This document shows, one piece after another, positions 16,363-64,000 of a stretch of 64,000 nucleotides of DNA. Within the stretch, counting starts at the first letter, position 1. Every line of letters begins with the position of its first letter. Made by a program: the position numbers and the translations under genes. The notes beneath the pieces were generated by a model. It saw only the letters and a program-made list of their open reading frames with translations. It did no database searches and was not told the origin of the DNA. The stretch lies in assembly GCF_054482595.1 (NCBI RefSeq), contig NZ_CM137008.1; one strand, written 5' to 3'.

Positions 16363-16376
16363 CTTATCCTTTGTGT

Positions 16377-16403: not shown

Positions 16404-16414
16404 CATAGAGATTA

Positions 16415-25218: not shown

Positions 25219-25446
25219 TTACTCATACGGGCCATGATGAATGTCGATCGGCAGCAGTAAAGTATCAAAAACCAGGGAGAATGGCAGATCAAGGATTGTG
25301 ACATAACGCCAGGCGGAGTCACGCACATCCCATTGCACACCGGGATAATATTGGTTGCCATGCCCCTGCCCCGGTATAGTGCGGCTAATGATGCTGCCAC
25401 AGCCACTCAGCAAGGTCACCATGATGCTCACCACAATTAAACGCAT
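25219..25446 (-). CDS. yceK: Lipoprotein YceK (75 aa)
   Basis: ORF translation MRLIVVSIMVTLLSGCGSIISRTIPGQG with lipobox. Confidence 0.9.
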   Translation of the reverse strand: MRLIVVSIMVTLLSGCGSIISRTIPGQGHGNQYYPGVQWDVRDSAWRYVTILDLPFSLVFDTLLLPIDIHHGPYE

Positions 25447-25469
25447 TTGATACCTCTTCCGTAAAAAAA

Positions 25470-25494
25470 TACCGGCATAACGCCGGTATTTTTA
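25470..25494. terminator. Bidirectional rho-independent terminator (downstream of opgGH)
   Basis: A7-TACCGGC-ataac-GCCGGTA-T5: symmetric A/T tracts flanking a GC stem. Confidence 0.7.
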
Positions 25495-25500
25495 TTGGCT

Positions 25501-25599
25501 CGTTGTTTTTGCCAGATGTGGCGTGAACGCCTTATCCGACCTACAAAATCTTGCAAAATCAACACATTGCAGGAGCGATGTAGGCCTGATAAGCATAGC
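25501..25599. repeat. Pair of REP elements (BIME-like)
   Basis: gccagatgtggcgtgaacgccttatccgacctac and gatgtaggcctgataagcatagcgcatcaggca in inverted arrangement. Confidence 0.65.
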
Positions 25600-25618
25600 G
25601 CATCAGGCAACTACGTTT

Positions 25619-29801
<4,183 letters not shown>

Positions 29802-30082
29802 TCAGCACGCTGGCTCATGGATTAAGCACCTGATTGCAACCGTTTTCACTTTCCGTGCTTCTCCTAAAGACAGAAGCATCGACTTCGTGTAGGGTTTGCC
29901 AGCAAATTTATTTATCAACCGTCTTACAGACGCTTCCATTCTGGTTAGTGGTAGCGATGATGCTATGCATAAAAACTTGAAGCCTGCGCCTGGCGCGGTC
30001 AGGTCGGTGTCGCTATGGCAACAAGCCTAAAGGCATAACCCGACAGGGATAAGACGAAAAATCCGAGATTAGTTAACCATAT

Positions 30083-31240
30083 ATGAATCCAGTACCCGCG
30101 CAACGTGAATATTTCCTCGACTCCATCCGCGCCTGGCTGATGTTGTTAGGGATCCCTTTTCATATTTCTTTAATCTATTCGAGCCATACATGGCATGTGA
30201 ATAGCGCCGAACCGTCATTGTGGCTGACCCTTTTTAATGACTTCATCCACTCGTTCCGCATGCAGGTATTTTTCGTTATATCCGGCTACTTTTCCTACAT
30301 GCTTTTTTTACGCTATCCCTTGAAAAAATGGTGGAAAGTACGTGTCGAACGTGTAGGGATCCCGATGTTAACAGCCATCCCCCTACTGACATTACCGCAA
30401 TTTATTATGCTGCAATACGTCAAAGGGAAAGCGGAAAGTTGGCCTGGACTGTCATTGTATGACAAATATAATACGTTGGCCTGGGAATTAATATCACACC
30501 TGTGGTTTTTACTGGTGTTAGTGGTCATGACGACGCTGTGCGTATGGATATTTAAACGCATCAGAAATAATTTAGAAAATTCTGATAAAACGAATAAAAA
30601 ATTCTCGATGGTAAAACTATCGGTGATTTTTTTGTGCCTCGGCATCGGTTATGCGGTAATAAGAAGAACGATTTTTATTGTGTATCCGCCCATTCTGAGT
30701 AATGGCATGTTCAATTTTATTGTCATGCAAACGCTATTTTATTTACCGTTCTTTATCCTCGGCGCACTGGCTTTCATTTTCCCTCATCTTAAAGCCTTAT
30801 TTACCACGCCGTCTCGTGGCTGTACCCTCGCTGCAGCATTGGCGTTTGTCGCTTATTTACTCAACCAGCGCTATGGCAGTGGCGATGCCTGGATGTACGA
30901 AACCGAGTCGGTGATCACCATGGTCCTCGGTCTGTGGATGGTGAATGTGGTCTTCTCCTTTGGCCACCGTTTGCTTAACTTCCAGTCAGCGCGGGTGACT
31001 TATTTTGTTAACGCATCGCTGTTTATCTATCTGGTTCACCACCCGTTAACGCTGTTTTTCGGCGCATACATTACACCGCACATCACCTCCAACTGGCTTG
31101 GTTTTCTCTGTGGCCTGATATTCGTAGTAGGGATTGCGATAATTCTGTATGAAATTCATTTACGCATCCCATTACTGAAGTTTTTGTTCTCTGGTAAACC
31201 GGTTGTTAAGCGTGAGAACGATAAAGCACCAGCCCGTTAA
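30083..31240 (+). CDS. opgC: OPG succinyltransferase OpgC (MdoC), acyltransferase-3 family (385 aa)
   Basis: ORF translation [33 protein letters not shown]; polytopic membrane protein. Confidence 0.93.
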
Positions 31241-31247
31241 GCCGCGT

Positions 31248-32669
31248 TTACAATAACCATTCCACGGGCAATATCGACGCCAGTCTGACCATAACCCGCT
31301 TCCAGAAACTGGTGGCGGGTTCTTTTTTGAGAACAATCTCTTTCTTTGCATGACGATCAACCCAGTTGATCCGTCCCCACCTGTCCAGACGGAGCTGCCA
31401 GGCCGCATCATACTGGCTCTGAATAAAGCGTTTATCAATTAACTGAGCCAGCGTTTCGCTCTCTATCACGAAGCCCATTTCAGTATTGAGCAATGTTGAA
31501 CGCGGATCGAAATTGAAAGAACCGATAAACACCGTTTTACCATCGATGCTAAAGGTTTTAGCATGCAGGCTGGCACCGGAATTACCTGTTATGCCGCGAT
31601 CGTGTAACGTACTACTTTGTTCACGCGTCGGCTTGAGTTCATATAATTCCACGCCATAACGGAGCAATTTTTTGCGCCAGCGCGCGTATCCGGCATGGAC
31701 GACAGCAACATCGTTAGCGGCAAGAGAATTGGTTAGGATCGCAATCTTTACCCCTTTTCTCACCATCCGTAAGAGTTGCGCCACACCTGCGCGTGTCGGT
31801 ACAAAATAGGAAGAGATAATATCGATGCGTTCACTGGGTGAGCCCATGATATCGAACAGGCGCTGCGGTAACAGCGAATGCCGTTTTGCCTTGCCCTCCC
31901 CTTTCGCCGGATCATCACTTAATAAACGTGTCTTCGCCCAGATAAGCGGCAACGTTCCATCAACCAGATGATTTATAAACGGACTGGATTCCATTTTGCG
32001 TAAGTAACGATGCGTCATGGCATCGTTATGCCATGAGGCGGGTAACTCGATGCGATCCGCCATTTCACCTTCCGGGACATCCAGCACCTGCTGTAAGGGT
32101 GAAACCGATTTGCAATACCAGTAGCGGGCGAAATCATCGGCAACGTCCTCTACTACGGGTCCTATTGCCATGACATCTAAATCCGAAAAAAGTGGCTCTT
32201 CCCCTGCCCCAAAATAGGCATCACCAATATTTCGCCCCCCTACCAGCGTCACCACGCCATCGACAGTGAAACTTTTATTGTGCATACGGCGATTGAGACG
32301 GGAAAAGTCGGTGATATAACCAAGCGGACGCAGCAAGCGAAACGAGAAAGGATTAAAAAGCCGGACTTCAATGCGGGGATGGCTGTCAAGCAAGCGTAAA
32401 ATGTCGTCAAGTCCGGGCGTATTGTTGTCGTCCAGCAACAAACGGACGCGAACGCCACGCTTTGCTGCGGCTAACAGGGCGGAAAACAGTAACCGACCCG
32501 ACATATCGTCCTGCCAGATGTAATACTGAACATCCAGCGTATGCTCTGCCATTTCGGCCAGAAGATACCGGGCGGCAAACGCATCCAGACTTTTCTCCAG
32601 AGGGAAAAGACCACACTGACCGGGATGTTGCGAACACAGTGGCAGCACCGCGCTCGCCAGCCGGGGCAA
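31248..32669 (-). CDS. clsC: Cardiolipin synthase C ClsC (YmdC), phospholipase D family (473 aa)
   Basis: ORF translation with two HxK(x4)D-like motifs; start assigned to TTG at 32669 preceded by AAGGAG, giving 473 aa; ORF track runs to ATG 32738. Confidence 0.9.
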   Translation of the reverse strand: MPRLASAVLPLCSQHPGQCGLFPLEKSLDAFAARYLLAEMAEHTLDVQYYIWQDDMSGRLLFSALLAAAKRGVRVRLLLDDNNTPGLDDILRLLDSHPRIEVRLFNPFSFRLLRPLGYITDFSRLNRRMHNKSFTVDGVVTLVGGRNIGDAYFGAGEEPLFSDLDVMAIGPVVEDVADDFARYWYCKSVSPLQQVLDVPEGEMADRIELPASWHNDAMTHRYLRKMESSPFINHLVDGTLPLIWAKTRLLSDDPAKGEGKAKRHSLLPQRLFDIMGSPSERIDIISSYFVPTRAGVAQLLRMVRKGVKIAILTNSLAANDVAVVHAGYARWRKKLLRYGVELYELKPTREQSSTLHDRGITGNSGASLHAKTFSIDGKTVFIGSFNFDPRSTLLNTEMGFVIESETLAQLIDKRFIQSQYDAAWQLRLDRWGRINWVDRHAKKEIVLKKEPATSFWKRVMVRLASILPVEWLL

Positions 32670-32670
32670 A

Positions 32671-33203
32671 TCATTCATCTCCTTGTTGGGTAAGGAGTCT
32701 TTCGTAGAGGTGGGCGTTTTCTTCATCATAACAGACAAAGTATACCTGTTCGGGTAAAGCGTGACGGGTAATAAATTCTGAAACGGTTTTTACTGCGATT
32801 TCAGCCGCTGCCGCACGAGGGTAACCATAAACCCCAGTACTGATTGCAGGAAAAGCCACTGACGTATAGCTGTTTGCCGCCACCAGTCGCAGGCTATTGA
32901 GATAGGCATCCTGCAAAAGCTGGTCTTCGTTTTGTTCACCACCACGCCAGACTGGCCCGACGGTGTGCACTACGGCTTTAGCGGGAAGATCGCCTGCAAG
33001 CGTAATAACGGCATGCCCCGTAGGGCAATCGCCCTGCTGTTGCCTGACTTTTAAACAAGCATCCAGCAGGGCCGGACCCGCTGCGCGATGAATGGCCCCA
33101 TCGACGCCGCGCCTCCCATTAATGACGGATTAGCCGCATTCACAATCACATCAACGGCCAGTTTGGTAATATCACCCTGCACAACATGAATACGCGTTTT
33201 CAT
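32671..33203 (-). pseudogene. ymdB: ymdB (macrodomain O-acetyl-ADP-ribose deacetylase) disrupted by a 1-nt deletion in the Gly-Gly-Gly-Gly tract
   Basis: ATG 33203 reads [31 protein letters not shown] then shifts frame near 33106-33113 (ggaggcgcggcgtc) to a stop; rest of YmdB is intact in the -1 frame to 32671. Confidence 0.75.
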
Positions 33204-35075: not shown

Positions 35076-35828
35076 GTTGTCACCCTGGACCTGGTCGTAC
35101 ATTTAAGAAATTAAATCATTTCAACTTGGTTGTTAACGCAACCTGTATTTTGTTAACGCTGCGTTACGATGGAAAGTATGTCTGCGGAAATATTTTTAAT
35201 AACTCACCCGCGCGTTGTATTTTTCTTTTTTTGTTCATACCAAAGTATTAAAAGCCACGTAAATACGCTGTTATCTACGCAAAAAATATTTTGTTTTCTT
35301 TTAAATCTCCGTTTTCCGCTAGCAAAAAACACCAGACAGTCATTCTTCTTGCCCGTCGCTGATTGCTGCGATATGTCTTGCGCACAAGCCGTGACAAACC
35401 TCGTCTTTTTGCAGTAAAAAATTGTCCACGGTGGTGTGGAGAAAAAACAAGAACGTTTTACATGACGAAAGGACTACACCGAAATATTTTTTATATGCAT
35501 TATTAGTAAGTTAGCACCATTTGTATGATTTTTTAAAATTGTGCAATAAAAACCAAATGTACAACTTTTCTATCATTCCTAAACTTAATAAAACCTTAAA
35601 GTTAACATTTCAATATAACGAGTTACATTTAGTTACATGTTTAACACTTGATTTAAGATTTGTAATGGCTAGATTGAAATCAGATGTAATCCATTAGTTT
35701 TATATTTTACCCATTTAGGGCTGATTTATTACTACACACAGCAGTGCAACATCTGTCAGTACTTCTGGTGCTTCTATTTTAGAGGCAGCTGTCAGGTGTG
35801 CGATCAATAAAAAAAGCGGGGTTTCATC
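35076..35828. promoter_or_regulatory. csgBAC / csgDEFG divergent intergenic regulatory region
   Basis: 753-bp AT-rich gap between divergent csgB and csgD; known to hold both promoters and many regulator sites; individual sites not resolved here. Confidence 0.7.
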
Positions 35829-41372: not shown

Positions 41373-41460
41373 GGTGAGGTGTCCGAGTGGCTGAAGGAGC
41401 ACGCCTGGAAAGTGTGTATACGGCAACGTATCGGGGGTTCGAATCCCCCCCTCACCGCCA
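41373..41460 (+). tRNA. serX: tRNA-Ser (anticodon GGA), serX-type, 88 nt with encoded CCA
   Basis: GGTGAGGTGTCCGAGTGGCTGAAGGAGCACGCCTGGAAAGTGTGTATACGGCAACGTATCGGGGGTTCGAATCCCCCCCTCACCGCCA: long variable arm, GGA anticodon, TPsiC GGTTCGAATCC. Confidence 0.97.
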
Positions 41461-41466
41461 GATTAT

Positions 41467-41499
41467 AAGCGCATGTTATTGTTTAACATGCGCTTTTTT
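41467..41499 (+). terminator. Rho-independent terminator of serX
   Basis: AAGCGCATGTTA-ttgtt-TAACATGCGCTT followed by TTTTA. Confidence 0.75.
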
Positions 41500-41609
41500 A
41501 TTTATCCTTCCGGACAGTATGCCATCGGGTATGCCATCTGAAACCGGTTTATATGCCCCGCGATCATATCTTATCGGACAATTTCCGATCTTTGAGCATA
41601 CTGGCAAAG

Positions 41610-42452
41610 CTATACTGCCAGCATGTCAGGATAGTGTTTTGCGATAATATCATTCAGTCTGTCAACCAGTTCTGGTTTCCTGAACGTGATGTGTGCGGAG
41701 CCCTTCTTAAAGTATCTGATGCTGAACATCTCATCTTCATAGTCCTCTTTACCCTGAACAGACTGGATGTGGTCATCCAGACGAAGGGTGATGTTTTCCC
41801 GGTTGTCGGGGATCGGTTTGCCGCTGAACAGGTGCAGCATTCTTTCCAGGTCGGCAAGTCGATCTACCTGGTGCCCGGTGATAAGATGAAATCCCCACCG
41901 GTCCCATCTCACCAGATTGTTGACGATAATTTTACTGCCAAATTTACAGGGGCAATTAGTTTTGTAATTCCAGCTCAATCCCCTGAAGACGTTGATCACC
42001 CCTCGCTCAAACACTTCATCTTTGTTCTGGTGCAGTTGTTCAAATGTGCTCAGAATGTTCGCTTCACTGACTTCCGGAAAATTATCATACTCCAGTGACC
42101 GGTACCATGTATCACGGGCCTGTGCATCCATTAAGGAAAGCATCCCTGAACGTTGCATCAGGTCACGCCAGATTTCTCGGTCAAGATTCCGGGTAATGGC
42201 TTTCATTGCTGTTTCGGGTTTCTCCATCAGCCAGCAACCGCAGCGAAAATCCTGTTTCATGGCCCAGTCCGGGGCGGTTTTACCTCCAATACTTTCTGTC
42301 ATTGATGAGATTTCAGCCAGTTGCCGGATAAGTGTGTCGATTTGCAGCAGTGTACTCTTTCGTACAGCCAGAATGTGGCTGACTGAGGTTGAGCAGATAA
42401 CGTCCGTATGCCCGTTGACCACTTCCGGATGGGAGAGTGTGATTGCAGACAT
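41610..42452 (-). CDS. Island-encoded hypothetical protein (280 aa), resembles proteins found downstream of cbtA-family toxin genes in CP4-type elements
   Basis: Intact ORF MSAITLSHPEVVNGHTDVICSTSVSHILAVRK...; same strand and tight spacing as the TA module; family (DUF4942-like?) is from memory and not verified. Confidence 0.6.
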   Translation of the reverse strand: MSAITLSHPEVVNGHTDVICSTSVSHILAVRKSTLLQIDTLIRQLAEISSMTESIGGKTAPDWAMKQDFRCGCWLMEKPETAMKAITRNLDREIWRDLMQRSGMLSLMDAQARDTWYRSLEYDNFPEVSEANILSTFEQLHQNKDEVFERGVINVFRGLSWNYKTNCPCKFGSKIIVNNLVRWDRWGFHLITGHQVDRLADLERMLHLFSGKPIPDNRENITLRLDDHIQSVQGKEDYEDEMFSIRYFKKGSAHITFRKPELVDRLNDIIAKHYPDMLAV

Positions 42453-42536
42453 AATTGATATTCCTTTTGGTTTATAAACGAAAACGCCAGCCGTATTCAG
42501 GCTGGCGTCAGTGGAATGAAGTCTGGTGAGTAAGAC

Positions 42537-42734
42537 TCACCTGTTCTGTTGCAGAAGCTGCTGTTGGCGCAGGGTACGGATATCTTCCCTGGCCTGTTCA
42601 ATGCAGGGCAGCAGTGCTGCTGAATCCGTTTTATCCTCATCGTTGTCGAAGATAATCCCTGATTCGCAGTCAATATTGTCCTGCAGCCACGCAATCAGAA
42701 TATCCAGCGCCGTTTCTGTGGTTAATGATTTCAT
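42537..42734 (-). CDS. Small island-encoded hypothetical protein (65 aa)
   Basis: ORF MKSLTTETALDILIAWLQDNIDCESGIIFDNDEDKTD; acidic; co-oriented with neighbours. Confidence 0.45.
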   Translation of the reverse strand: MKSLTTETALDILIAWLQDNIDCESGIIFDNDEDKTDSAALLPCIEQAREDIRTLRQQQLLQQNR

Positions 42735-42750
42735 GTTGTGAATTTACGGG

Positions 42751-43239
42751 TTACCAGTCGAAAGTGGGGAACCCCGGCAGACATTCTGCGCCGGCGTCCA
42801 GATGAATGAGACTGACGCCATAACGCCGGGTGAGAGTGACGACCAGACGACGGAACGTTCTTGACAGGCCCAGGCGTTTAAGCCGCAGAACCGGGTACGA
42901 CCATGCATCGGTACGTAACAGATAGCCGCTGCCTGTAAAATGAATCCATTCTGTTTCGCCGTCGTCATTAGTCTGGTGTGACAGCGAGTACAGCCAGGCG
43001 TTGTCCGTTTCCGTGATATGTGCGGTACTGCAACGTATGCCGGTAAGGGTTGTTAACGGTGGTGGTGTACTGGTTGACTGCTGGTCGGATTTATCGACCA
43101 CGCGGAGTGAATAACCGTTTTCAGAGACCTTGTTAATCAGTTCAGCGAGATTAACACCATCGACGTCAACGACAATGCGCCCCATGTTCAGCGCCTGCAT
43201 GTTAATGCTGTCGGCTTCCGGCGTCAGGGAAAGGTTCAT
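42751..43239 (-). CDS. Island-encoded hypothetical protein (162 aa), translationally coupled to the toxin gene
   Basis: ATG 43239 overlaps toxin stop (ATGA, plus 43236-43239); [31 protein letters not shown]... Confidence 0.55.
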
Positions 43240-43619
43240 TGTTTCGCCTCCTCCGGATGCTTGCCCAGGGTAATGTTATTTACCATTCTGTAATTGTCCC
43301 GGGTCATCAGGCCGGTCGCCCTGCGAGCCCGGAGAATATCAATGCTGTTGATTAACTGAGACGACGGGGCTCCTGCGCTGAATCCCGGCTGGTCAGTTCG
43401 TACCAGCACGTATTTTTCAACGAGAAAGTTCACCGCGTCACACAGTGAAATCCCTGCCTCAATATGCTGCTCAATCACACGTTCATCAGCGAACGGTGTG
43501 TCATTCAACGTAAGGCCATAGTGCTGGTCCAGCAGTCGGGTGAGCAGTGTCTGCCAGATTTCAACCGGAGACGGGCAGCGCGATGCCGCCCGTACGTGTG
43601 TGTCGGGTAATGTTTTCAT
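43236..43619 (-). CDS. cbtA: Type IV toxin-antitoxin toxin, CbtA/YeeV/YkfI/YpjF family (127 aa)
   Basis: Translation from ATG 43619 [73 protein letters not shown] track extended 53 codons upstream. Confidence 0.85.
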
Positions 43620-43695
43620 ACTGAAGGTTTTCCTGATATGCAGAGATGAAAAATGGAAAAGTGGCGTGGTGAAAGCACCAGGCCGGAGCAGAAGG

Positions 43696-44076
43696 CTATT
43701 CCGGAGGGTTACTTTCCGTTTCGGTCGCAGGATAAACAGCCAGATAAACGTAACCACAGGAGCCGAGGGTGTCGGCATCGCAGGTCAGCCCTTTCGCATA
43801 CAGCGTGACGGTATGCTGATGCCGGGGATTCAGTTCACCGCTGGTGAGCATGAGTTCCAGTTGTTTCATCAGCAGTGGAAAAGCCTGGTCCAGATGGTAT
43901 GCATCCGCATTGCTGAACCGGCCTCTGATACCGGCGCGGTCTGCAAGGTAATGCAACCGGTTACCCTCCTGCACCAGACGTGCCCCGAAACAGGGCGTCA
44001 CGATGCAGGGCAGCCCCCACCAGGGGCGGTCTTTGTTGTCGTCGGGAAGCGTTGTCCCGGGGAGTGTGTCTGACAC
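43696..44076 (-). CDS. cbeA: Type IV toxin-antitoxin antitoxin, CbeA/YeeU/YfjZ/YafW family (126 aa)
   Basis: GTG start 44076 preceded by GAGGA; translation (M)[51 protein letters not shown]. Confidence 0.85.
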
Positions 44077-44086
44077 GATAAAATCC

Positions 44087-44770
44087 TCACAGAAAATCGG
44101 TGAATGATAGTTTAACGATGACGGGGCAGCCGGCGCGCAGACCGGCTTCGGTGAAGGTATATTCGTTGATGAGAAGGGCCTCATCCACAGCGGCGTCTGA
44201 GGTCAGCCAGTCGTACTCGTTTTCCAGTTGACGGTACAACCAGAAGGCCAGGTCGCGCAGGGCTTCGCTGACTGCGGCTTCCGCATCGGTTGTCATAGCC
44301 TGACCAGTCGGACTGTTCCGGGTGACGGTGATATCCATGCAGTACGGATGGCAGTAACGTCCCCGGTGGTGGATTTCAGCCTGCAGTTGCCAGAAGTTAC
44401 GCTTCTGCACCGCCTGCAGGGCATCCGCGATACGATGAAGCTCACGGTCCTGCGGGGCATACACCCCGACTCTCCTGGCTGTTGCTGACTGCCAGTGCCA
44501 GCGTCCTTCAAAACAGGCTCCGTCCCCCTGGCTGCAGAATCCGCTGAACCAGATGCACGGCTCTTCCATAAACCTGCCGTTGCTGAGCCGGATAACACGC
44601 TGGCGGAGGTCAATCCCGAAAATGCCACAGACCTCCCTGAAGTCCCCATACACGTTTTCATACCAGTTGCTGTCAGCATGATGCTGACGGTACCAGTCGC
44701 GGGCTTTTTCCTGTGCGGTGGAGGATAGCTCATTCAGTGTATACACAGTGGTGGTGATAATTCTGCTCAT
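44087..44770 (-). CDS. Hypothetical protein (227 aa) between DUF987 and antitoxin genes; not recognised as a canonical CP4 gene
   Basis: ORF MSRIITTTVYTLNELSSTAQEKARDWYRQHHADSNWYEN...; fills the gap exactly; its TGA stop (44087-44089) overlaps the antitoxin Shine-Dalgarno GTGAGGA. Confidence 0.6.
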   Translation of the reverse strand: MSRIITTTVYTLNELSSTAQEKARDWYRQHHADSNWYENVYGDFREVCGIFGIDLRQRVIRLSNGRFMEEPCIWFSGFCSQGDGACFEGRWHWQSATARRVGVYAPQDRELHRIADALQAVQKRNFWQLQAEIHHRGRYCHPYCMDITVTRNSPTGQAMTTDAEAAVSEALRDLAFWLYRQLENEYDWLTSDAAVDEALLINEYTFTEAGLRAGCPVIVKLSFTDFL

Positions 44771-44788
44771 CAGAGTGCCCTTACTGAC

Positions 44789-45010
44789 TCAGTTCAGAGT
44801 GACGTTCATCAGCCGGACATACGGGCCAAAACTGTCCTTACGGCGTTCAGCAAACACGGCCAGCACACCGGGAATATCCTGCACTTCACGACCGGTATAC
44901 GCCTCAGCACTGCCGTGCCAGCGGTATTTGCCGGTACAGAAAGGAAAAAGACGGGATGCCGGATGTTGTTGGTGAATACGCATGGCTTCACCACGGGTGA
45001 TGATTTTCAT
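44789..45010 (-). CDS. DUF987 family protein (YeeT/YkfH-like), 73 aa
   Basis: ORF MKIITRGEAMRIHQQHPASRLFPFCTGKYRWHGSAEAYTGREVQDIPGVLAVFAERRKD; canonical position upstream of CbeA-type antitoxin. Confidence 0.8.
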   Translation of the reverse strand: MKIITRGEAMRIHQQHPASRLFPFCTGKYRWHGSAEAYTGREVQDIPGVLAVFAERRKDSFGPYVRLMNVTLN

Positions 45011-45072
45011 AGTGTGATACCTCTGAAGACAGAAGATAAAAGTGCAAACAAGCGTGATGTGGTTGTGACGGG

Positions 45073-45564
45073 TTAAAGCAGACCATGTTCGGCAAAGGAG
45101 AAAACCTGGTTGCCACCGACTATCAGATGGTCCGGCACCCGGATATCCACCAGGCCCAGTGCCTGTACCAGACGTTCCGTGATAAGGCGGTCTGCCTTGC
45201 TGGGTGTGACTTCACCGGACGGGTGATTGTGCGCCAGCACCACGGCAGCGGCATTGTGGTACAGGGCGCGTTTAATCACTTCCCGGGGATGGACTTCCGT
45301 GCGGTTGATGGTGCCGGTGAAGAGGGTTTCACCGGCAATCAGTTGATTCTGGTTATTCAGATACAGCACCCGGAATTCTTCACGCTCCAGTCCCGCCATG
45401 TTCAGAATCAGCCATTCCCGTGCCGCACGGGTGGAGGTGAAGGCCACGCCGGGTTCATGAAGATGGCGGTCCAGAGTTTTCAGGGCCCGCAGAATGAGAC
45501 TGCGCTCGCCGGGCGTCATCTCTCCGGGCAGAAAGGAAAGCTGCTGCATTGTCCCTGCCTCCAT
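45073..45564 (-). CDS. RadC-like JAB-domain protein (YeeS/YkfG/YfjY family)
   Basis: ORF contains HNHPSGEVTPSKADRLITERL (JAMM HxH...S motif); start may be the internal Met at 45549. Confidence 0.85.
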   Translation of the reverse strand: MEAGTMQQLSFLPGEMTPGERSLILRALKTLDRHLHEPGVAFTSTRAAREWLILNMAGLEREEFRVLYLNNQNQLIAGETLFTGTINRTEVHPREVIKRALYHNAAAVVLAHNHPSGEVTPSKADRLITERLVQALGLVDIRVPDHLIVGGNQVFSFAEHGLL

Positions 45565-46050
45565 TCAGTCGATGATGCGCATAATGGCGCTGCATTCCGG
45601 ATGCTGCAGGGCGTAATCCCGCAGCCGGTAATAATGGACCGTCATGGCATAACACTCCGTACGACAGGCGTGATGACTGTACGTCATCAGACAGGCAGCA
45701 ATGCCGGCAGCTTCCGGACTCATTTCAGCGCGGTTACCGTTCATGGCATTGAACAGTACCCATGTTTCGTCATCATCGTCATCCGGTTCGGGTGCCATAA
45801 ATGCCCCGCCGTTGTTCAGGGTGTACAGATTCCAGATACCACCGCAGTAGTCTTCACACAGACGGTCCATCCAGCCGAAGACACGGGGCTCCAGGGCCAC
45901 CCACTGTGGAATGAGGCCAAAGTGCTGCGGCCAGAAGCTGATGCGCTGTTCATCAGGGACTATGGTGGCAACCAGCTGAGGCTGGTCATTCCCTGATGCA
46001 GCGGTTACGGAAACAGAAGGAGTGGTGGAATTATGCAAGACGGTTGTCAT
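45565..46050 (-). CDS. Antirestriction protein, KlcA/ArdB-like (YfjX/YafX family), 161 aa
   Basis: ORF MTTVLHNSTTPSVSVTAASGNDQPQLVATIVPDEQRISFWPQHFGLIPQWVALEPRVFGWMDRL. Confidence 0.8.
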   Translation of the reverse strand: MTTVLHNSTTPSVSVTAASGNDQPQLVATIVPDEQRISFWPQHFGLIPQWVALEPRVFGWMDRLCEDYCGGIWNLYTLNNGGAFMAPEPDDDDDETWVLFNAMNGNRAEMSPEAAGIAACLMTYSHHACRTECYAMTVHYYRLRDYALQHPECSAIMRIID

Positions 46051-46141
46051 GAGATTATTCCTTATAAAAAGTAAATGAATGGAAGAAATCCCGGGGGAAG
46101 GGACAGACGTGAGTCAGAACTGCGCTTTCAGGGAAACGGCA

Positions 46142-46960
46142 TCAGCGCATACTCTCCAGCAGCGTTTCAGCCATCACCCACAATGCGCGGTTGAGCTTAA
46201 TGTCGGTGTCGATGCTGTGAATGGCACGGGTATGGATACGTTTTCCTCTGGCACTGCGACCGGAAATCCCGCCTTTCAGCATATTCTCCTGAATGGTCTG
46301 ATAAGCACTCCACAGGTCCTTACCGTAATCCTCCCGGCGTCGTGGCGTCAGAATGTCGGCGGTGGTGACGGGCCGATGTTCGTCACCATAACGGTAAGTC
46401 AGTGCCGCCTGTGCCAGCGCCTGGCGTGCCGGTGGCGGCAGAATCAGCGACTGCATGGCATCACGCTTTTCCTCAATCCGGTCAAAAACCCCCACCACCT
46501 CGTAAGCCCCTTCAATAACTTTCTCCACCACATTTCCCCGGTGCGGAACACGCACTTCCCCCAGAGACTGACCACAGACGCATCCGTTCTGACAGACGAA
46601 CCTGAAGTAACCCGGCAGCATCTGGTAGCTGGAGGTACCGTCATGGGAGTTGAGCAGAATGATTTCAGGGACATGTTCTCCGTTTATCTCTCCGGCCCGC
46701 CGCAGACGCAGCATATGTTTTGTGTATCCCCGGCGGCCCGGGTCGCGCACACGGGTCTGGCAGGCGAAGAATGGCTGAAAGCCTTCCCGCTGCAGGCTTT
46801 CCAGTACGGTGATGGTGGGAATGTACGCATATCGTTTACTGCGGGAAGTATGCCGGTCTTCACCGAAAATACTGGGAACATAGTGCATCAGTTCTTCGTG
46901 TGTCAGCGGACGGTCACGGCGTATCTGGTTCGTATAACCAAAACGACTGGCTAGTCGCAT
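46142..46960 (-). CDS. Island-encoded DUF932-like protein (YfjQ-like), 272 aa
   Basis: Intact 272-aa ORF MRLASRFGYTNQIRRDRPLTHEELMHYVPSIF...; family from memory. Confidence 0.65.
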   Translation of the reverse strand: MRLASRFGYTNQIRRDRPLTHEELMHYVPSIFGEDRHTSRSKRYAYIPTITVLESLQREGFQPFFACQTRVRDPGRRGYTKHMLRLRRAGEINGEHVPEIILLNSHDGTSSYQMLPGYFRFVCQNGCVCGQSLGEVRVPHRGNVVEKVIEGAYEVVGVFDRIEEKRDAMQSLILPPPARQALAQAALTYRYGDEHRPVTTADILTPRRREDYGKDLWSAYQTIQENMLKGGISGRSARGKRIHTRAIHSIDTDIKLNRALWVMAETLLESMR

Positions 46961-47239
46961 AATTTGCTCCTTATGAATGAGTTAGCGGTATAAATGAAAA
47001 AGCCGCGTCTCCCGGAGAAGACACGGCCTGACAGATGAAATGAATGACGTTTATTGTCTGAGAAGCCCTTCACTGGCGAGCTGCGTATTTTTATGGAAGG
47101 AGATCACCCAATAACCCCATCGGGATCGGGTAATAACCGGCCAGACTGTGATCGATTCAGATGCCATTTGGCAGCAAAAGAGCCTTCGGCAATAAACGTG
47201 ATGTACAACCCGGCATATCTGTTACTCCCTGAAAGTAAA

Positions 47240-47266
47240 AGGCCCCGGTCATTATGACCGGGGCCT
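47240..47266 (-). terminator. Rho-independent terminator downstream of the antigen 43 gene
   Basis: AGGCCCCGGTCAT-t-ATGACCGGGGCCT palindrome 20 nt after Ag43 stop, followed on minus strand by TTTTAC. Confidence 0.65.
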
Positions 47267-47286
47267 GAAGGGGAGTGACCTGATTA

Positions 47287-50133
47287 TCAGAAAGTCACAT
47301 TCAGCGTGGCCTGACCGTTATAGCCTTCGGCGCTGCTGCCGCTGACGCTGTGGGCATAACCGGCCTGAACGCCCAGGGTGATATTTTCCCGGACACGGGC
47401 TTCCAGTCCGGCCTGCAGGTCCAGTGACGTGCCATTCTGGGACGGTGAGAACGTCATGTTACTGCCGGCGGCGGCTGTCCCCATGCTCATGTCACCCCGG
47501 GAACTGAAGGTGCGGATAACAGAAGGCTGTACCCACCAGTTCACCGGCAGTTCACGCACACGGTGTTTTGCACTGTCGCGCAGGGTGTCACGGGATGAGG
47601 TGCCTTCACCAAAGCTCATATCGTTGTGGCTGCCCAGACGGAAGCCGGCACGCATATGTTGTGCACTGCCATGCCCGAACTTCACATAACCGGCGTTATC
47701 CTGGCCGTCATCCAGGGAAAGTCCCTGCCAGGTGTACTGCAGTTGTGGTTCCAGCATCAGGTTGTCAGTGATACTGAAGGGCAGACCGGTTTCCAGTGAG
47801 CCCAGCCAGCCCCAGCCCCGGGCGCGGAAGTCGTTATTGTCCGATGACGCTTTCATGCTGTGGCGGGTTCCCTGTGCCATAATGTCAGCCCACAGGCCGG
47901 AGGACGTGTGTACCAGATTCAGGTATCCGCCCAGGCTGCCGGCATCATCCCGGACCGTGCCGGCGCGGGAGCCGTCATCATCCTTAACATCAACGGAAGA
48001 ATGGCCAGCAGCACTATATACCCCCGCGGTCACAGACATACCGGCAACCTCTGTTCTCAGCAGGTCACTCTCCAGACGGACGAAGCCATAGCTGCCGCTG
48101 CTTTCCGGCGTGGCCCCACGGGCAATACCGCCGTTGTTATCGTGACCGAGATGACCGCCCTGAATGCTGAGACGGACGCTGTTATTTTCACCGTTTACAC
48201 CGGTCTGATGGCTGCGGGAGCCTGCCAGAATCCGGTCATAGTCCATTGCCTGTGTCAGCATGGAAGCATACAGGGGGACTTCAGCACGATAAGCATTTTC
48301 ACTGCGCAGGTACCAGTCTTCATCGCTGTCACGGTTCAGGGTGTAGTTAAAGGCACCGGCCTGAAGCGGGCGACTCAGGGCAAACGCACCTTCTTCTGTG
48401 GTGGCACCATTCTGTGCATCCACAACCCGGATACCCTGTCCGGAAGTTGCCACCCCGAGGTTACTGTTTCCGACATTTGTGAACGCAAGCCAGGTTTTGC
48501 CGGTTGCCTGACCACCATTAATCACCAGCTGGTCAGAGGCATTGCTGCCATCAAGGCGAACACGCATATTGATGGTGCCACCCTGACCGGTGAGGTTACT
48601 GGTGGTCAGTTTATGGAACGTTACCGGGGCGTCGCCTTTTGCAACAGCACGGCTCAGGACGGCATCCTGTGTCGTCTGATTATCAAAGCGAATCTCCCCT
48701 GCGTTAACAATATCGCCGGTACTGACCACATCACCATTCAGTACCATGCTGGCGCCTTTACTGAGCTGTGTTCTGCCACTCAGACTTCCCCCGGCAGCCA
48801 GCGTCAGTGTTCCACGATGTCCGACAGTGGTGTTGCCAGCCTGTCCCCCGGCATTAACCGTAAAGCTGCCGCCATTTTCCAGCAGCAGGCCGCTGGCCTG
48901 ACCGGATATGCCATCAATACTGAACTTACCGCTGGCATTGGTCCCCTCAACAGTGGCACCACTGTCTGCAATCAGGGCACCACCGGATGTCATGGTGACA
49001 CCTGTCGCCTTACCACCGGCAGACACTGCCAGGGTACCGCCGTCATCCACCCGTGTTTTCTGCGCTGAATGACCCTCCAGTACATCCAGACGACCGCCGG
49101 ACTCCAGAACAACACCGTCAGCCTTACCGTTTTCCACCGCGAAATTGCCCAGACGGTTGCTGCCGGTGACGGTTGCCGCCGTACTGGTGACCAGTGCGCC
49201 TCCCTGCTTCAGGGTGACATTCGTGGCTGTACCACCGGCGTTCACCTGCAGTTTGCCTTTCTGGTTAACGGTGGTGAAATCCGCCAGACCACCTTCCTTG
49301 ATAATCTGCCAGCCGTCACTGTTCACAACAGTGTCAGACGTTGTACCGCCGTTGTGTACATACTGGTTACCGCCATTCAGCGTGGTATCCAGTGCGTGGC
49401 CATGTACCGTCTGGTCGCCGCCGGCATAAACCACAGTGGTATTTGCTGTTCCTTCAACAGTCACAATCTGACGACCATTTTTATTGATGGTGGTACGTAC
49501 GGCATTTCCGCGAACAAACTGCCCGGTATCACCATTTTCTGCATCCGGTCCTCCTTCTGCGCCGGTATTCACAACGGTGTCTGTTGCCACTGCGCCGGGT
49601 TTGACGACCTGCCAGCCCTTATCATTAATGACGGTTCCTGTGGCTATCGCACCTTCATGCATCCACTGCTCGCCACCATTCAGCGTGGTGTTCAGTGCCA
49701 GTCCCTTCAGGCTTTGTCCGCCTCCTTCATTGATTATTGTGTCTGTAGCCTTTCCCCCGGCACCTACAAACTGGAGCCCGCCGCTGCTGATGGTGGTATT
49801 ACTGGCTGTGCCGCCATCCTGTACCCATTGCCCGCCGGTATTGGCCTCGTTATCCGTCCCATACTCCAGCCCGGTACTGATGGTCATTCCGTTGGTCGTA
49901 CCGAAGACAATCTGGTTGTCATGATTTGTCAGTGTTCCGCCGTTCACGGTTTCTCCCGCCTCTACAACCGTGTCAGCAGCCAGTGCCGGGACTGGCGTGA
50001 CAGCAGCAAGAGACAGCGCAACCGCCACACCGGCGCGTTTTCCCCGTGAGCGGGCCAGTTCGGAAGCCACCACCAGGGTGCCCGTAATGTGATTCCATAC
50101 CAGCCTGTAGCTGGTGTTCAGATGTCGTTTCAT
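47287..50133 (-). CDS. flu: Antigen 43-type self-associating autotransporter adhesin (948 aa)
   Basis: Translation from ATG 50133 MKRHLNTSYRLVWNHITGTLVVASELARSRGKRAGVAVALSLAAV (extended signal peptide); beta-helical repeats; C-terminal beta-barrel ending QATLNVTF; AAGGA SD. Confidence 0.92.
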   Translation of the reverse strand: MKRHLNTSYRLVWNHITGTLVVASELARSRGKRAGVAVALSLAAVTPVPALAADTVVEAGETVNGGTLTNHDNQIVFGTTNGMTISTGLEYGTDNEANTGGQWVQDGGTASNTTISSGGLQFVGAGGKATDTIINEGGGQSLKGLALNTTLNGGEQWMHEGAIATGTVINDKGWQVVKPGAVATDTVVNTGAEGGPDAENGDTGQFVRGNAVRTTINKNGRQIVTVEGTANTTVVYAGGDQTVHGHALDTTLNGGNQYVHNGGTTSDTVVNSDGWQIIKEGGLADFTTVNQKGKLQVNAGGTATNVTLKQGGALVTSTAATVTGSNRLGNFAVENGKADGVVLESGGRLDVLEGHSAQKTRVDDGGTLAVSAGGKATGVTMTSGGALIADSGATVEGTNASGKFSIDGISGQASGLLLENGGSFTVNAGGQAGNTTVGHRGTLTLAAGGSLSGRTQLSKGASMVLNGDVVSTGDIVNAGEIRFDNQTTQDAVLSRAVAKGDAPVTFHKLTTSNLTGQGGTINMRVRLDGSNASDQLVINGGQATGKTWLAFTNVGNSNLGVATSGQGIRVVDAQNGATTEEGAFALSRPLQAGAFNYTLNRDSDEDWYLRSENAYRAEVPLYASMLTQAMDYDRILAGSRSHQTGVNGENNSVRLSIQGGHLGHDNNGGIARGATPESSGSYGFVRLESDLLRTEVAGMSVTAGVYSAAGHSSVDVKDDDGSRAGTVRDDAGSLGGYLNLVHTSSGLWADIMAQGTRHSMKASSDNNDFRARGWGWLGSLETGLPFSITDNLMLEPQLQYTWQGLSLDDGQDNAGYVKFGHGSAQHMRAGFRLGSHNDMSFGEGTSSRDTLRDSAKHRVRELPVNWWVQPSVIRTFSSRGDMSMGTAAAGSNMTFSPSQNGTSLDLQAGLEARVRENITLGVQAGYAHSVSGSSAEGYNGQATLNVTF

Positions 50134-50348
50134 CAGCTTTTCCTTACAGAGGGTGAATAAAAAAGCCGGTACCCACAAATGTGGATACCGGCAGGTACAA
50201 AACAGCATGGTCAGATAAAGTGGTTTTTCCCGGACATAAATGCTTCCCCTCTCTCATCCGCCAGAGAAGTATCAGTCCGTTGTGTGCAATTCCGTTCTGC
50301 ATGATGAAGAGATTCAGCTGCCTTTTCGCAGACCATTAACCACCATAA

Positions 50349-50390
50349 ACGATCGATGACAACGATCGATACCTGTTTTATCGATCGTTT
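50349..50390. promoter_or_regulatory. agn43 phase-variation switch: three GATC (Dam) sites in the presumed OxyR operator
   Basis: GATC at 50352, 50365 and 50384 within cGATCgatgacaacGATCgatacctgttttatcGATCg, about 220-250 nt upstream of Ag43 ATG. Confidence 0.75.
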
Positions 50391-50504
50391 TATTCTATTA
50401 ACAGCAAGGCAGTCACGCAAGGGAAAGAGGTGGGTATGAGGTGTTTGTATCATGTTTTCAGTTGGTTAACGCAATGTAATCAGGCATTTCCCCTGGCAGA
50501 ATGT

Positions 50505-51416
50505 TCAGAAGAAAATCCAGTTCCATACAGCGCGGGCAACAGAGACCACCGTGTCACGGACGACACGCAGAACCGTACGAGCCACAGAGGCAACACAGAC
50601 GCTCTCCGCCGTGTCAAATATCCGGTCCACCGCACCGGTAAACTGTTCACGGGCCTGCCCCCGGACAGATTCCGTGCACAGCTCGTCCTGCAGGCGGGTC
50701 ATCAGGGGACTGGCGGCATGGTCGGGAAGTGCTGTCATGAGCGCACTGACCAGCGTATCCAGTTCCCAGCCGGTGCGGGCCGATACGGCCACAACCGGAT
50801 GTACGGGCCGGAACAGACGGAATACCGCCTCCGTTTTTTCGCGAATGTTCTGTGCCTGTGCGGGAGAAGGCTGAATACCGGCCATATCCCATTCATGGCA
50901 GGGCTCCGTTTTATCGGCCTGCGTCACCACAAACAGCACCTGCTGATGTCCCCGGTGCAGGATGTGTCGCCAGAAATACTCATCCACAGACAGGGCACGG
51001 TCATCGGCTTTAATCAGCCACAGTACCAGGTCAAGTTCAGGCAGAATGTCACGGTACAGGGCTTCATACTCTGCATCCCTGTCCCGGCTCTCGCCCACCC
51101 CGGGCAGGTCAGTGATAACCATGCTGTGACCGTGGCCACTCAGACGGAAGCGCCGCACTTCCCGGGTGCCGGCGTGAACATCACTGACCGGGGTGACCTC
51201 CCCCTGAAACAGTGCATTACAGAGTGAGGATTTACCGGCCCCGCTTTTCCCCATAATGCCAATCACGGGTTCGTGACTGGTGAGTTTACGCAGATGTTCC
51301 AGGATGTGACGGGAAAGTGAGTAAGGCAGGGAAGAAAGTGGTTTTTCAATTGCCTCAATGGCATCAGACGGATTCATACATGTATTCCCGGTGAAAAAAG
51401 ACAAAACCCCGCGCAC
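50505..51416 (-). CDS. YeeP/YfjP-family GTPase (303 aa)
   Basis: ORF with P-loop GIMGKSGAGKSSLCNAL and DLPG G3 motif; canonical position upstream of agn43; start may be internal Met at 51377. Confidence 0.85.
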   Translation of the reverse strand: MRGVLSFFTGNTCMNPSDAIEAIEKPLSSLPYSLSRHILEHLRKLTSHEPVIGIMGKSGAGKSSLCNALFQGEVTPVSDVHAGTREVRRFRLSGHGHSMVITDLPGVGESRDRDAEYEALYRDILPELDLVLWLIKADDRALSVDEYFWRHILHRGHQQVLFVVTQADKTEPCHEWDMAGIQPSPAQAQNIREKTEAVFRLFRPVHPVVAVSARTGWELDTLVSALMTALPDHAASPLMTRLQDELCTESVRGQAREQFTGAVDRIFDTAESVCVASVARTVLRVVRDTVVSVARAVWNWIFF

Positions 51417-51640
51417 CGGAAAGGTGGCGGGGGATTCACGGAGATAATATCTGTCTGAAATTATTTAGAATGCACCTGGTGCACTGCAAAGGAAAGGCAA
51501 TATTCCGTTCCTCCTCCTTGTCGTGAATACCCCAGGTATCTCACAATGTACACCGACTTACTCCGGGGCTGCCTGAACCACAAGATTGCTGTAGAATTGC
51601 CCCCAATGATTCAGGTCCAAACCAGGAAAATGGATTAAAA

Positions 51641-63077: not shown

Positions 63078-64000
63078 GTTACCCGCTCTTCAATCTCATG
63101 CAATTGATTATGCAATATCGCATTTTCATCCTTTTGCCCGGCTAATGAGTGGGTAAGCGTCTCAACTTCTTGCTGTAATGCGGAGCTCCTGGCCTGGAAA
63201 AACTCAAGTTCCTTCAGAACCCGATCTTTAAGAGAGAATAGGTACTCTTCAGCTGACAGCGTGGTGATCCTATGATGGGCGGCGGCGATAAATTCATCAT
63301 AAAAATCATCACTCTTTGCATCCAGGGCAACAACAAACTCTTTCACTTGCTGATAAAACGGGTGAAATGCCGGACCAGAAATCGTGTTTAAATGCCACTC
63401 AAGGAACACGACAACATAGTTTTTATAATCTCTGAGACGGTGTTCCATCATCCCCTGCTGACAGATAAACGCTTTAAGCGCCACCAATGCTTCAACAGCA
63501 CAGCGGTGCGACTCTGCTCGCGTGGCGGATAGGGATTCACTACGGTTGATGGTATGAGAAATTAACGTTTCATTTAAGACCGAAATTCTGTTCGCCATGA
63601 GCATAAATGCGCAGACGAAGAAAAGATCGTTGGTCGTCCTGATTTCCTGAAAGCGAAGCTGATGACTAGTAATAAATTGACGCCTGAGAAGCTTGTCCCA
63701 TGGCCACCAGACAAAGGTGCGGAAAAAGTCAGAGGGAATATCCTGGGATGAAAAAAACTTGAGATCAGGTAACAGCTCCTGGCGCACTGACCACGGCATC
63801 GGAGCATAAACCTGCAAGGCGGGATCAAAAGACTGGCTGCGACAGATAACGACATCCGCTTGTATATCGCTAGCACGTGCGTACATGCGCTCCAACATCA
63901 TGTTATCGACATAATCGTCGTCATCAAGAAAAATAACGTACTCACCGGTAGCAGCATCCAACCCGATGTTTCTTGAGCCTCCCCCACCAAGATTTGTCGT
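63078..64000 (-). CDS. GT2-family glycosyltransferase fragment: 5' end beyond window, native 3' end replaced by IS903 (ORF track 63047-63961 includes IS-derived codons)
   Basis: Frame open to window end (…TTNLGGGGSRNIGLDAATGEYVIFLDDDDYV… DxD motif); C-terminal heptad-rich region; last 10 codons and stop come from the IS903 inverted repeat. Confidence 0.7.

Follow-up and report, generated by a model that had tools for sequence, protein, structure and literature searches.

In the DNA analysed here (the window, 64,000 nt of contig NZ_CM137008.1 from RefSeq assembly GCF_054482595.1), the tRNA gene serX is followed by about 10 kb of genes of the kind found in CP4-type elements, and no integrase lies beside the tRNA. 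The question raised by this locus is whether the stretch is the residue of a prophage or part of something larger. A first, sequence-only reading had described it as a CP4-type prophage-remnant module, belonging to an element either larger than the window or decayed. Our analyses indicate that the stretch from 41461 to 51474 is very probably the tRNA-proximal, integrase-distal arm of an integrative island of approximately 41.6 kb, of the SRL-PAI/OI-43/OI-48 (SpLE1) family. Earlier work had already described module, attachment site, 14-bp repeat, integrase family and polysaccharide cargo alike. The features of the window are collected in Table 1.

Table 1. Features at and downstream of serX, in window coordinates
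Feature	Position	Strand	Evidence
serX, tRNA-Ser(GGA)	41373..41460	+	ARAGORN (single tRNA); Rfam tRNA
attL core CCCCCTCACCGCCA, 14 bp, last 14 nt of serX; left direct-repeat copy	41447..41460	+	
Terminator-like hairpin for serX, island-supplied	41467..41495	+	Terminator scan
Two tandem GTATGCCAT motifs, candidate arm-type integrase binding sites	41517-41525 and 41529-41537	+	
DUF4942 protein, last gene of module	41610..42452	-	Pfam PF13708, E = 3e-69
65-aa ORF, annotated DUF957	42537..42734	-	RefSeq annotation of identical copy
DUF5983 (YeeW-like) protein	42751..43239	-	Pfam PF25638, PF19419
CbtA-family toxin, type IV TA pair	43236..43619	-	Pfam PF06755, E = 2e-59, positions 1-112 of 112
CbeA/YeeU-family antitoxin	43696..44076	-	Pfam PF06154, E = 5e-54, positions 1-100 of 101
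227-aa ORF	44087..44770	-	phrog_5162 match
DUF987 (YeeT-like) protein	44789..45010	-	Pfam PF06174, E = 5e-40
RadC-like JAB-domain protein (YeeS-like)	45073..45549	-	Pfam PF04002, E = 8e-45
Antirestriction protein	45565..46050	-	Pfam PF03230, E = 3e-37; phrog_10132, anti-restriction
DUF932 protein	46142..46960	-	Pfam PF06067, E = 6e-52
Ag43/Cah-family self-associating autotransporter adhesin	47287..50133	-	Pfam ESPR, AIDA repeats, AC_1, Autotransporter beta-domain; RefSeq
agn43 leader/regulatory region	50152..50388	-	Sequence; Rfam IS102 RNA, RF00124, 71.6 bits
YeeP/YkfA-like GTPase, first gene of module	50505..51377	-	Pfam MMR_HSR1 and others; RefSeq
Orphan type I RM methylase gene hsdM	51641..53212	+	Pfam N6_Mtase, HsdM_N
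wbbY, two-domain galactosyltransferase, D-galactan II polymerising	54062..56284	-	740 aa, GT4 and GT2 domains
wbbZ, O1b terminal pyruvyltransferase	56382..57191	+	Pfam PS_pyruv_trans; PMC4237132, PMC10629545
IS block: IS256 fragment, ISKpn26, IS3-family elements, IS903B	57458..63045	.	RefSeq, co-linear copy
Family 2 glycosyltransferase gene, cut by window end	63047..64000	-	Pfam; RefSeq annotation of the THO-010 and SMS-3-5 copies

The junction at serX

The serX sequence in the window is identical to that of K-12, and the tRNA gene is intact despite the insertion. Both K-12 and BL21 have an empty site, and comparison with these two genomes places the island junction at 41460/41461, the exact 3' end of serX, where synteny with the window stops as the sequence-only reading had stated. 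The core CCCCCTCACCGCCA at this end is the reverse complement of TGGCGGTGAGGGGG, the published repeat of OI-43/48 and SRL-PAI (PMC3064760). A search allowing up to one mismatch returned only the serX copy in the 64-kb window; judging from the THO-010 genome, the right-hand copy is expected beyond it, at the equivalent of about 83068-83081. A duplicate of the serX 3' end in K-12 was considered as a possible island scar and rejected, because these copies turn out to be where two RtT repeat units (Rfam RF00391) end.

The native serX terminator stands directly after the tRNA in K-12 and after the right-hand repeat in THO-010, SMS-3-5 and O157. The terminator-like hairpin that the island supplies just inside the junction takes the place of this native terminator, now moved to the island's other end. 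The GTATGCCAT motif, present as a tandem pair next to this hairpin, occurs exactly four times in the 50-kb THO-010 locus (L001), where 0.58 copies would be expected by chance; two copies lie just within each end of the island, all on one strand. Three of the four are exact in the arms of the O157 island, the attL-proximal one reading GTATGCCAC. From this arrangement we infer that the pairs are candidate arm sites for the integrase.

Gene content of the module

Pfam matches, together with what RefSeq annotates in a 99.9%-identical copy, give 12 co-oriented minus-strand genes after serX. In order of transcription these encode the GTPase, Ag43, the DUF932 protein, the antirestriction protein, the RadC/JAB protein, the DUF987 protein, the 227-aa ORF, the antitoxin, the toxin and the DUF5983, DUF957 and DUF4942 proteins, which confirms the content and order given by the sequence-only reading. 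Its assignment to the CP4 type is likewise borne out, the families being those of the 'flu/yee' module in canonical order (Pfam E values from 1e-14 to 1e-69). The ORF limits of the sequence-only reading run slightly long: for Ag43, the GTPase, the toxin and the antitoxin, annotated starts lie downstream of those of the maximal ORFs. Alignment to the O157 island puts the right limit of the conserved module at approximately 51474, close to the 51416 proposed earlier; this is the end of the module and not of the element.

The antitoxin and toxin genes resemble a type IV toxin-antitoxin system in their layout, with cbeA upstream of cbtA on the same strand, 76 nt between them and both full-length. 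The 227-aa ORF belongs to a family that is typically 214 aa long (2726 homologues) and carries the database label 'antitoxin of toxin-antitoxin stability system'; it had no match in Pfam, NCBIfam, PADLOC or PDB sequences. Coming from a family with neither a Pfam model nor a structural relative, it may represent a new factor for establishment or anti-defence. For the 65-aa DUF957 ORF, Pfam, NCBIfam and PHROG searches all returned no match. PADLOC, run on the proteins of the module and of the integrase end, reported only the hsdM remnant and a weak similarity of the GTPase to LeoA/LeoBC. Upstream of agn43, three GATC sites, each within CGATCG, are found at 50386-50383, 50367-50364 and 50354-50351. 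This is the layout of a Dam/OxyR phase-variation switch, for which OxyR binding and switching are predicted.

The far end of the island in near-identical genomes

The integrase and the right-hand repeat were read in the near-identical THO-010 and SMS-3-5 copies, the window itself ending approximately 19 kb before the predicted far end. Over the 22.6 kb of island that the window contains, the alignment is co-linear with both genomes, with 14 mismatches and 2 gaps against THO-010 (99.93% identity) and 2 mismatches against SMS-3-5 (99.99%). In both, the island measures approximately 41.6 kb, and at its end an intact P4-type integrase of 402 aa adjoins a perfect direct repeat of 14 bp. In THO-010 the two direct core copies are 41.6 kb apart and the far end adjoins ycdU. 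The right-hand repeat is also perfect in the O157 island. The THO-010 integrase matches an NCBIfam integrase-domain model and is 97% identical to that of O157 OI-48; its 90% cluster includes a 405-aa integrase of Shigella flexneri. An AlpA-family excisionase candidate and a DUF3987 gene, the latter frameshifted in THO-010, also lie at the integrase end, outside the window. The direct repeat and tyrosine integrase that the sequence-only reading suggested seeking are thus both present in the co-linear copies, approximately 41.6 kb from serX. Its observation that the window holds no integrase and no second tRNA 3' end also stands: the core is single, and no tyrosine recombinase is annotated in the equivalent stretch of THO-010.

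Such a window is also what one would see if the module were an orphan fragment in the source genome, fixed in place after loss of the integrase and right repeat. Insertion sequences are abundant in the island, parts of its interior are deleted in some relatives (76-85% coverage), and IS-mediated internal deletions are documented in OI-48 (PMC3064760). We nevertheless consider a decayed remnant very unlikely: the module genes are intact, all of the visible 22.6 kb is co-linear with complete 41.6-kb copies, and THO-010, whose core flank is also approximately 100% identical to that of the window, retains the complete far end. Of the two options left by the sequence-only reading, an element larger than the window therefore holds and a decayed one does not, as copies 99.93-99.99% identical retain the integrase, the AlpA candidate and the repeat. 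An inversion or serW/serX rearrangement behind the 'missing' integrase was rejected, as the far-end repeat is direct and both O157 and CP4-6 show this layout too.

Were the module left over from a P4-like satellite phage with phage-related functions, the P4-type integrase, the AlpA-family regulator and the PHROG matches of several module proteins would be in keeping, as would the traditional annotation of the K-12 homologues as 'CP4 cryptic prophages'. Those PHROG matches are only to unknown-function or moron-type families, however, and what the island carries as cargo are genes for an adhesin, restriction-modification and polysaccharides. No capsid, tail, packaging or lysis genes, nor any resembling P4 sid, psu or delta, are annotated in the whole island of THO-010 or SMS-3-5. 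A true cryptic prophage is accordingly highly improbable; as the annotation of the whole island is free of virion, packaging and lysis genes, the term survives as a historical label only.

A model for integration

The anatomy of the island, together with published work on the SRL-PAI/OI-43/OI-48 family, suggests how an integrative island would have come to this position. The last 14 nt of serX would be the place where a P4-type tyrosine integrase, whose gene lies at the other extremity of the island, inserted the element through site-specific recombination. Once the island was in place, the tRNA would take its new 3' end and a new terminator from the module end, and the displaced original 14 nt and native terminator would adjoin the integrase, beside ycdU. 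Family assignments suggest a role in establishment for the antirestriction, RadC/JAB, DUF932 and DUF987 proteins, in maintenance for the CbtA/CbeA type IV pair, and in phenotype for Ag43 as an adhesin that may be phase-variable through a Dam/OxyR-type switch. The rest of the island is cargo and IS debris, Klebsiella O1-type O-antigen genes included.

RecA-dependent homologous recombination could have brought the island to serX in place of the integrase, through import of a large piece of chromosome with the site already occupied or through exchange between serW and serX. These two genes are identical in the 88-nt tRNA and in approximately 60 nt of downstream terminator, so that homology exists on both sides of the core. 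The island has no conjugation genes, and its transfer from cell to cell must therefore rely on something else. We regard this route as unlikely: serW and serX have only a very short stretch of homology in common, site-specific recombination at the 14-bp core would give precisely the junctions observed, and the core flank of the window up to serX is typical of its own lineage, differing by 1.8% from that of SMS-3-5. Integrase-dependent excision and the use of two sites are moreover documented for the family (PMC3064760, PMC7545054).

Comparison with known islands

Among the closest known systems are OI-43 and OI-48 (SpLE1), found at serW and serX in O157:H7. They use the attachment sites of this island, and their 14-bp direct repeat recurs as the left copy in the window and as both copies in THO-010 and SMS-3-5. 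The O157 serX island conserves both att arms and has the layout of the THO-010 copy (serX - DUF4942 ... GTPase - cargo - int - ycdU); across the module, its DNA matches the window at 88-93% identity. It differs in lacking the 227-aa ORF, in having three additional genes (patatin, RdcB-like and dynamin-like) between DUF932 and cah, in its size (approximately 87 kb versus 41.6 kb) and in its cargo, which is ter, ure and iha (tellurite resistance, adherence) rather than hsdM', wbbYZ and an rfb2a-like cluster. OI-43 and OI-48 carry a P4-family integrase at the ycdU/clpA end, are flanked by the 14-bp repeat they share with SRL-PAI, and excise by recombination between the repeats (PMC3064760).

SRL-PAI likewise uses serX, with serW as an alternative, and has identical flanking 14-bp repeats. 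At 90% identity or more, its integrase clusters with that of the THO-010 island, and it also carries an Ag43-family gene; by description it differs in size (66 kb) and in its antibiotic resistance and fec cargo. Excision of SRL-PAI requires int (PMC7545054).

The K-12 elements CP4-6 (thrW), CP4-44 and CP4-57 share the GTPase, DUF932, antirestriction, RadC, DUF987, antitoxin and toxin families. CP4-6 is also alike in geometry, the tRNA being followed by a reversed module with intF 34 kb away at the far end; it differs in its tRNA target and integrase and in lacking Ag43 and the DUF5983/DUF957/DUF4942 tail. The geometry is reversed in CP4-57, where the integrase adjoins ssrA. In GI-pheV islands, too, the integrase adjoins the tRNA (PMC11537424). 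The sequence-only reading had pointed out that no integrase adjoins the tRNA; this is no anomaly but the standard geometry of SRL-PAI, OI-43 and OI-48 (PMC3064760) and of CP4-6. When a reversed CP4 module stands after a tRNA and no integrase adjoins it, the element is therefore not to be annotated as decayed, since in the serX/serW family and in CP4-6 the integrase belongs at the other end by design.

Distribution and mobility

The junction between serX and the island is present in 1173 of 5426 complete genomes. With K-12 and BL21 empty, the region is accessory; serX is an island integration site, as proposed earlier, and the contrary outcome named by the sequence-only reading, presence of these genes at serX in essentially all E. 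coli, is excluded. The core flanks of the window are 100% identical to those of several strains, of which THO-010 is the closest that also has this island at serX. SMS-3-5 (O19:H34), a phylogroup F strain (PMC11537424), carries essentially the same element, with wbbY and wbbZ (EcSMS35_2255/2256), at serW rather than serX (infA-serW-island-clpA). Between the window and SMS-3-5 the island diverges by approximately 0.01% and the core flanks by 1.8%. A near-identical island at paralogous sites in diverged flanks indicates that the element has moved horizontally in recent times.

Cargo and insertion sequences

The cargo includes Klebsiella O1-type O-antigen genes, with wbbY and wbbZ inside the window and the rfb2a-like cluster beyond it. 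Klebsiella proteins dominate the clusters of both gene products (the 90%-identity cluster in the case of wbbY). In SMS-3-5, EcSMS35_2255 shows 99% identity to WbbY of K. pneumoniae (PMC4237132). The wbbYZ genes of that strain, which match their K. pneumoniae counterparts at 99%, were the subject of Hsieh 2014 and Kelly 2023, and this cargo is already on record both in E. coli O19 and in SMS-3-5. In O19-type strains, the Klebsiella O1-like O-antigen genes are carried by an OI-48-type island able to reside at serX or at serW, which bears on serotyping and on O1-antigen vaccines.

We suggest tentatively, and with some doubt, that the island may be currently active and serotype-adding, moving a complete Klebsiella O1-type pathway (rfb2a-like cluster and wbbYZ) among E. 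coli lineages via serX or serW, whose attachment sites are identical. If so, this would account for a published remark on where these genes sit in the chromosome, which 'varies among isolates' (PMC10629545), and cross-reactivity between O19-like and O1 antigens would be a horizontally mobile trait.

The hsdM gene is accompanied by no hsdS or hsdR gene. Its 3' end has been replaced by IS1, the last codons of the ORF deriving from the end of that element; IS1B is annotated in the co-linear RefSeq copy at the equivalent of 53206-53903. The larger IS block stands between wbbYZ and the rfb2a-like cluster, and the family 2 glycosyltransferase gene after it opens the remaining 19 kb or so of the island. 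Within the block, Rfam identifies an ALIL pseudoknot at 60561-60677.

Gene content downstream of serX

The sole tRNA gene in the window (ARAGORN) is a tRNA-Ser(GGA) at 41373-41460 (+), identical to K-12 serX, with ghrA, ycdX, ycdY, ycdZ and csgG upstream in a K-12-like arrangement. Directly after it lie 12 genes, all on the minus strand; they were assigned from Pfam matches together with RefSeq gene calls for a near-identical copy. The sequence-only reading had described these twelve as a CP4-type prophage remnant, and its gene list and order were correct; its ORF limits picked out the right genes, with some starts too long.

Features of the serX-proximal module and incidental core features (window coordinates; P, Pfam; R, RefSeq annotation of near-identical copy; G, Rfam gathering-level match, ordinary core-genome feature)
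Feature	Position	Strand	Transcription order	Evidence
YeeP-like GTPase	50505-51377	-	1 (first)	P, R
Ag43/Cah autotransporter	47287-50133	-	2	P, R
DUF932	46142-46960	-	3	P, R
Antirestriction protein	45565-46050	-	4	P, R
RadC/JAB	45073-45549	-	5	P, R
DUF987	44789-45010	-	6	P, R
227-aa ORF	44087-44770	-	7	R, no Pfam match
CbeA/YeeU antitoxin	43696-44076	-	8	P, R
CbtA toxin	43236-43619	-	9	P, R
DUF5983	42751-43239	-	10	P, R
65-aa ORF annotated DUF957	42537-42734	-	11	R
DUF4942	41610-42452	-	12 (last)	P, R
ES056 sRNA	35682-35773			G
ES036 (CssrF) sRNA	25545-25587			G
PyrC leader	16365-16414			G

Judging from family membership, the antirestriction, RadC/JAB, DUF932 and DUF987 proteins probably serve establishment after transfer, the CbtA/CbeA type IV toxin-antitoxin pair probably contributes stabilisation or cell-shape effects, and Ag43 would promote aggregation and biofilm. 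The agn43 upstream region contains three CGATCG sites and an Rfam match to the agn43-leader family IS102, a layout that, as read from sequence, is the hallmark of the Dam/OxyR phase switch.

The 227-aa ORF had no sequence match in Pfam, NCBIfam, PADLOC or PDB, and its sole match was phrog_5162, of unknown function. Its family has 2726 members, mostly of 214 aa, and identity is still approximately 60% among Alphaproteobacteria homologues. The place of the family within CP4 modules is variable; in the same module of Klebsiella michiganensis, the homologue separates cbeA from cbtA. In Methylosinus its neighbours are ArdC, ParB_N, helicase and Toprim genes, and the region resembles a segment of a conjugative element. 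The AlphaFold model is fairly confident (mean pLDDT 81.6) and yielded no convincing structural relatives.

Island ends and integrase

A search of the 64-kb window for a second copy of the 14-bp serX 3' end returned the serX copy alone, and the annotation of the equivalent stretch in the near-identical copy lists no tyrosine recombinase. The final 24 kb of the window matched 22 complete E. coli genomes at a coverage of at least 80%. In THO-010 the match is a single co-linear piece, with 14 mismatches and 2 gaps in 22.6 kb from serX onward, and the core flank is also approximately 100% identical. Past the window end, the THO-010 island has a Klebsiella rfb2a-like cluster and then IS remnants, a pseudogene with a primase domain, an 'inovirus Gp2-type' gene and a hypothetical gene of 607 aa; an AlpA-family regulator of 82 aa, a DUF3987 gene and a 402-aa tyrosine integrase (-) come next, and ycdU lies beyond. 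A perfect direct copy of CCCCCTCACCGCCA lies between the integrase and ycdU and is followed by the native serX terminator. Of the two alternatives offered in the sequence-only reading, an element extending beyond the window was borne out, and the direct repeat and integrase suggested as a check are both present at the far end of the THO-010 copy. The THO-010 island measures 41,621 bp with one repeat copy included, and by projection the present one would end at approximately 83081 in window coordinates.

The island itself contributes the final 14 nt of serX at the left junction, together with a terminator-like hairpin (41467-41495) that is new to the gene; in island-free genomes such as K-12, BL21 and ATCC 43886 the native terminator is directly 3' of serX. 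In the 50-kb THO-010 locus there are exactly four occurrences of the 9-mer GTATGCCAT, against 0.58 expected by chance; each island end has two of them in tandem just within the element (window 41517-41537; THO-010 locus 45046-45066), and all four share one strand. The O157 island arms match three of these copies exactly and have GTATGCCAC in place of the fourth. We infer that these pairs are candidate arm-type integrase sites. In the complete copies neither repeat is damaged, nor are the integrase and AlpA-like genes, which would fit an excision-competent element; no conjugation genes are annotated in the island (RefSeq, THO-010 copy).

The empty serX sites of K-12 (L003, 4204-4521) and ATCC 43886 (L012, 1140-1560) carry two RtT-type repeats (Rfam RF00391) of approximately 178 bp. 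Each ends in a serX 3'-end copy including the 14-bp core, which brings the number of potential cores at an empty site to three. No RtT unit lies between island and ycdU in island-bearing THO-010 and O157.

Accessory status and mobility

A 600-nt probe spanning ghrA, serX and the island was counted at a coverage of at least 80% in 5426 complete genomes. The junction was covered in 1173, and most of the remainder, K-12 and BL21 among them, matched only up to the tRNA end, in agreement with the claim that the module is accessory. The equivalent serW junction was covered in 282 genomes. The particular island of the window is rare (approximately 22 genomes).

That the element targets tRNA genes was likewise upheld. 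The 14-bp repeat is the serX 3' end, and SMS-3-5 carries the same island at serW, between infA-serW and clpA, with no such island at its serX site. The island part differs from SMS-3-5 by 2 mismatches in 22,628 bp, versus 747 mismatches (98.19% identity) in the 41 kb of core to its left. Because of this roughly 200-fold contrast and the two alternative sites, the comparison indicates recent horizontal movement. At the SMS-3-5 serX locus (L006, 44645-46861) a DUF2726 gene and then phoH follow; the ycdU/pga region of K-12 and THO-010 is not adjacent to serX there.

Relation to known islands

Read on the other strand, the 14-bp repeat is TGGCGGTGAGGGGG, a sequence already published as the direct repeat of O157:H7 O-islands 43 and 48 and Shigella SRL-PAI. 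The insertion sites of these islands are serW and serX, their P4-family integrase lies towards clpA or ycdU, and they are excised when the two repeats recombine (PMC3064760; PMC7545054). In one O157 genome examined directly, the serX island (approximately 87 kb) has the same layout: ghrA, serX, DUF4942 through DUF932, three extra genes, cah, GTPase, cargo, int and ycdU. Its integrase is 97% identical to that of THO-010, and both of its att arms align with those of the present island. The integrase's 90%-identity cluster includes a 405-aa S. flexneri protein, which fits the published difference, the OI integrase being 15 bp shorter than the SRL integrase (PMC3064760). Module DNA is 88-93% identical to that of O157; the present module carries roughly 550 additional bp that cover most of the 227-aa ORF and has no counterpart of a 4.7-kb patatin/RdcB/dynamin insert found in O157. 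These differences show the usual mosaicism.

The lack of an integrase beside the tRNA had been taken as a possible sign of decay, a reading that did not hold. An integrase remote from the intact tRNA is normal for the SRL-PAI/OI-43/OI-48 family (PMC3064760), and K-12 CP4-6 has the same geometry: the genes that follow thrW (ykfI, yafW, ykfH, ykfG, yafX ... yafZ and ykfA) run on the other strand, and intF is 34 kb away. Because both share it, the arrangement here is ordinary rather than odd. GI-pheV-like islands, in which the integrase abuts the tRNA (PMC11537424), differ solely in the orientation of the tRNA-derived core; in the circular form attP would be flanked by the integrase and the DUF4942 end under either geometry. 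The element is a member of a long-known island family with cargo already described, and its interest is low.

O-antigen cargo

Beyond the module is an hsdM gene (51641-53903 including IS1) whose 3' end is replaced, the last codons being supplied by the inserted IS1. No hsdS or hsdR partner is present in the cargo, and this orphan type I hsdM looks like a remnant of a cargo-borne defence system. A divergent pair follows (54062-57191), encoding a 740-aa two-domain glycosyltransferase (wbbY) and a 269-aa pyruvyltransferase (wbbZ). Their 90%-identity clusters are mostly Klebsiella proteins, and GC content falls to 36-41% across the pair. The rfb2a-like cluster past the window (THO-010 locus 25166-33068; wzm-wzt-wbbM-glf-GT-GT) encodes an ABC-transporter permease and ATPase, a DUF4422 (WbbM-type) protein, Glf and glycosyltransferases. 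The island cargo thus includes Klebsiella O1-type O-antigen genes.

SMS-3-5 EcSMS35_2255/2256 are 99% identical to K. pneumoniae WbbY and WbbZ and have been linked to D-galactan II of E. coli O19 (PMC4237132). E. coli wbbYZ is often near a complete rfb2a cluster, at a variable chromosomal position (PMC10629545). Carriage on an OI-48-type island at serX or serW, which neither paper states, at least partly explains this variable position, and the link is our sole addition to what was known.

Between the two polysaccharide loci lies a dense IS stack (57458-63045) of an IS256 fragment, ISKpn26, two IS3-family elements and IS903B, the last adjoining the 3' end of a family 2 glycosyltransferase gene.
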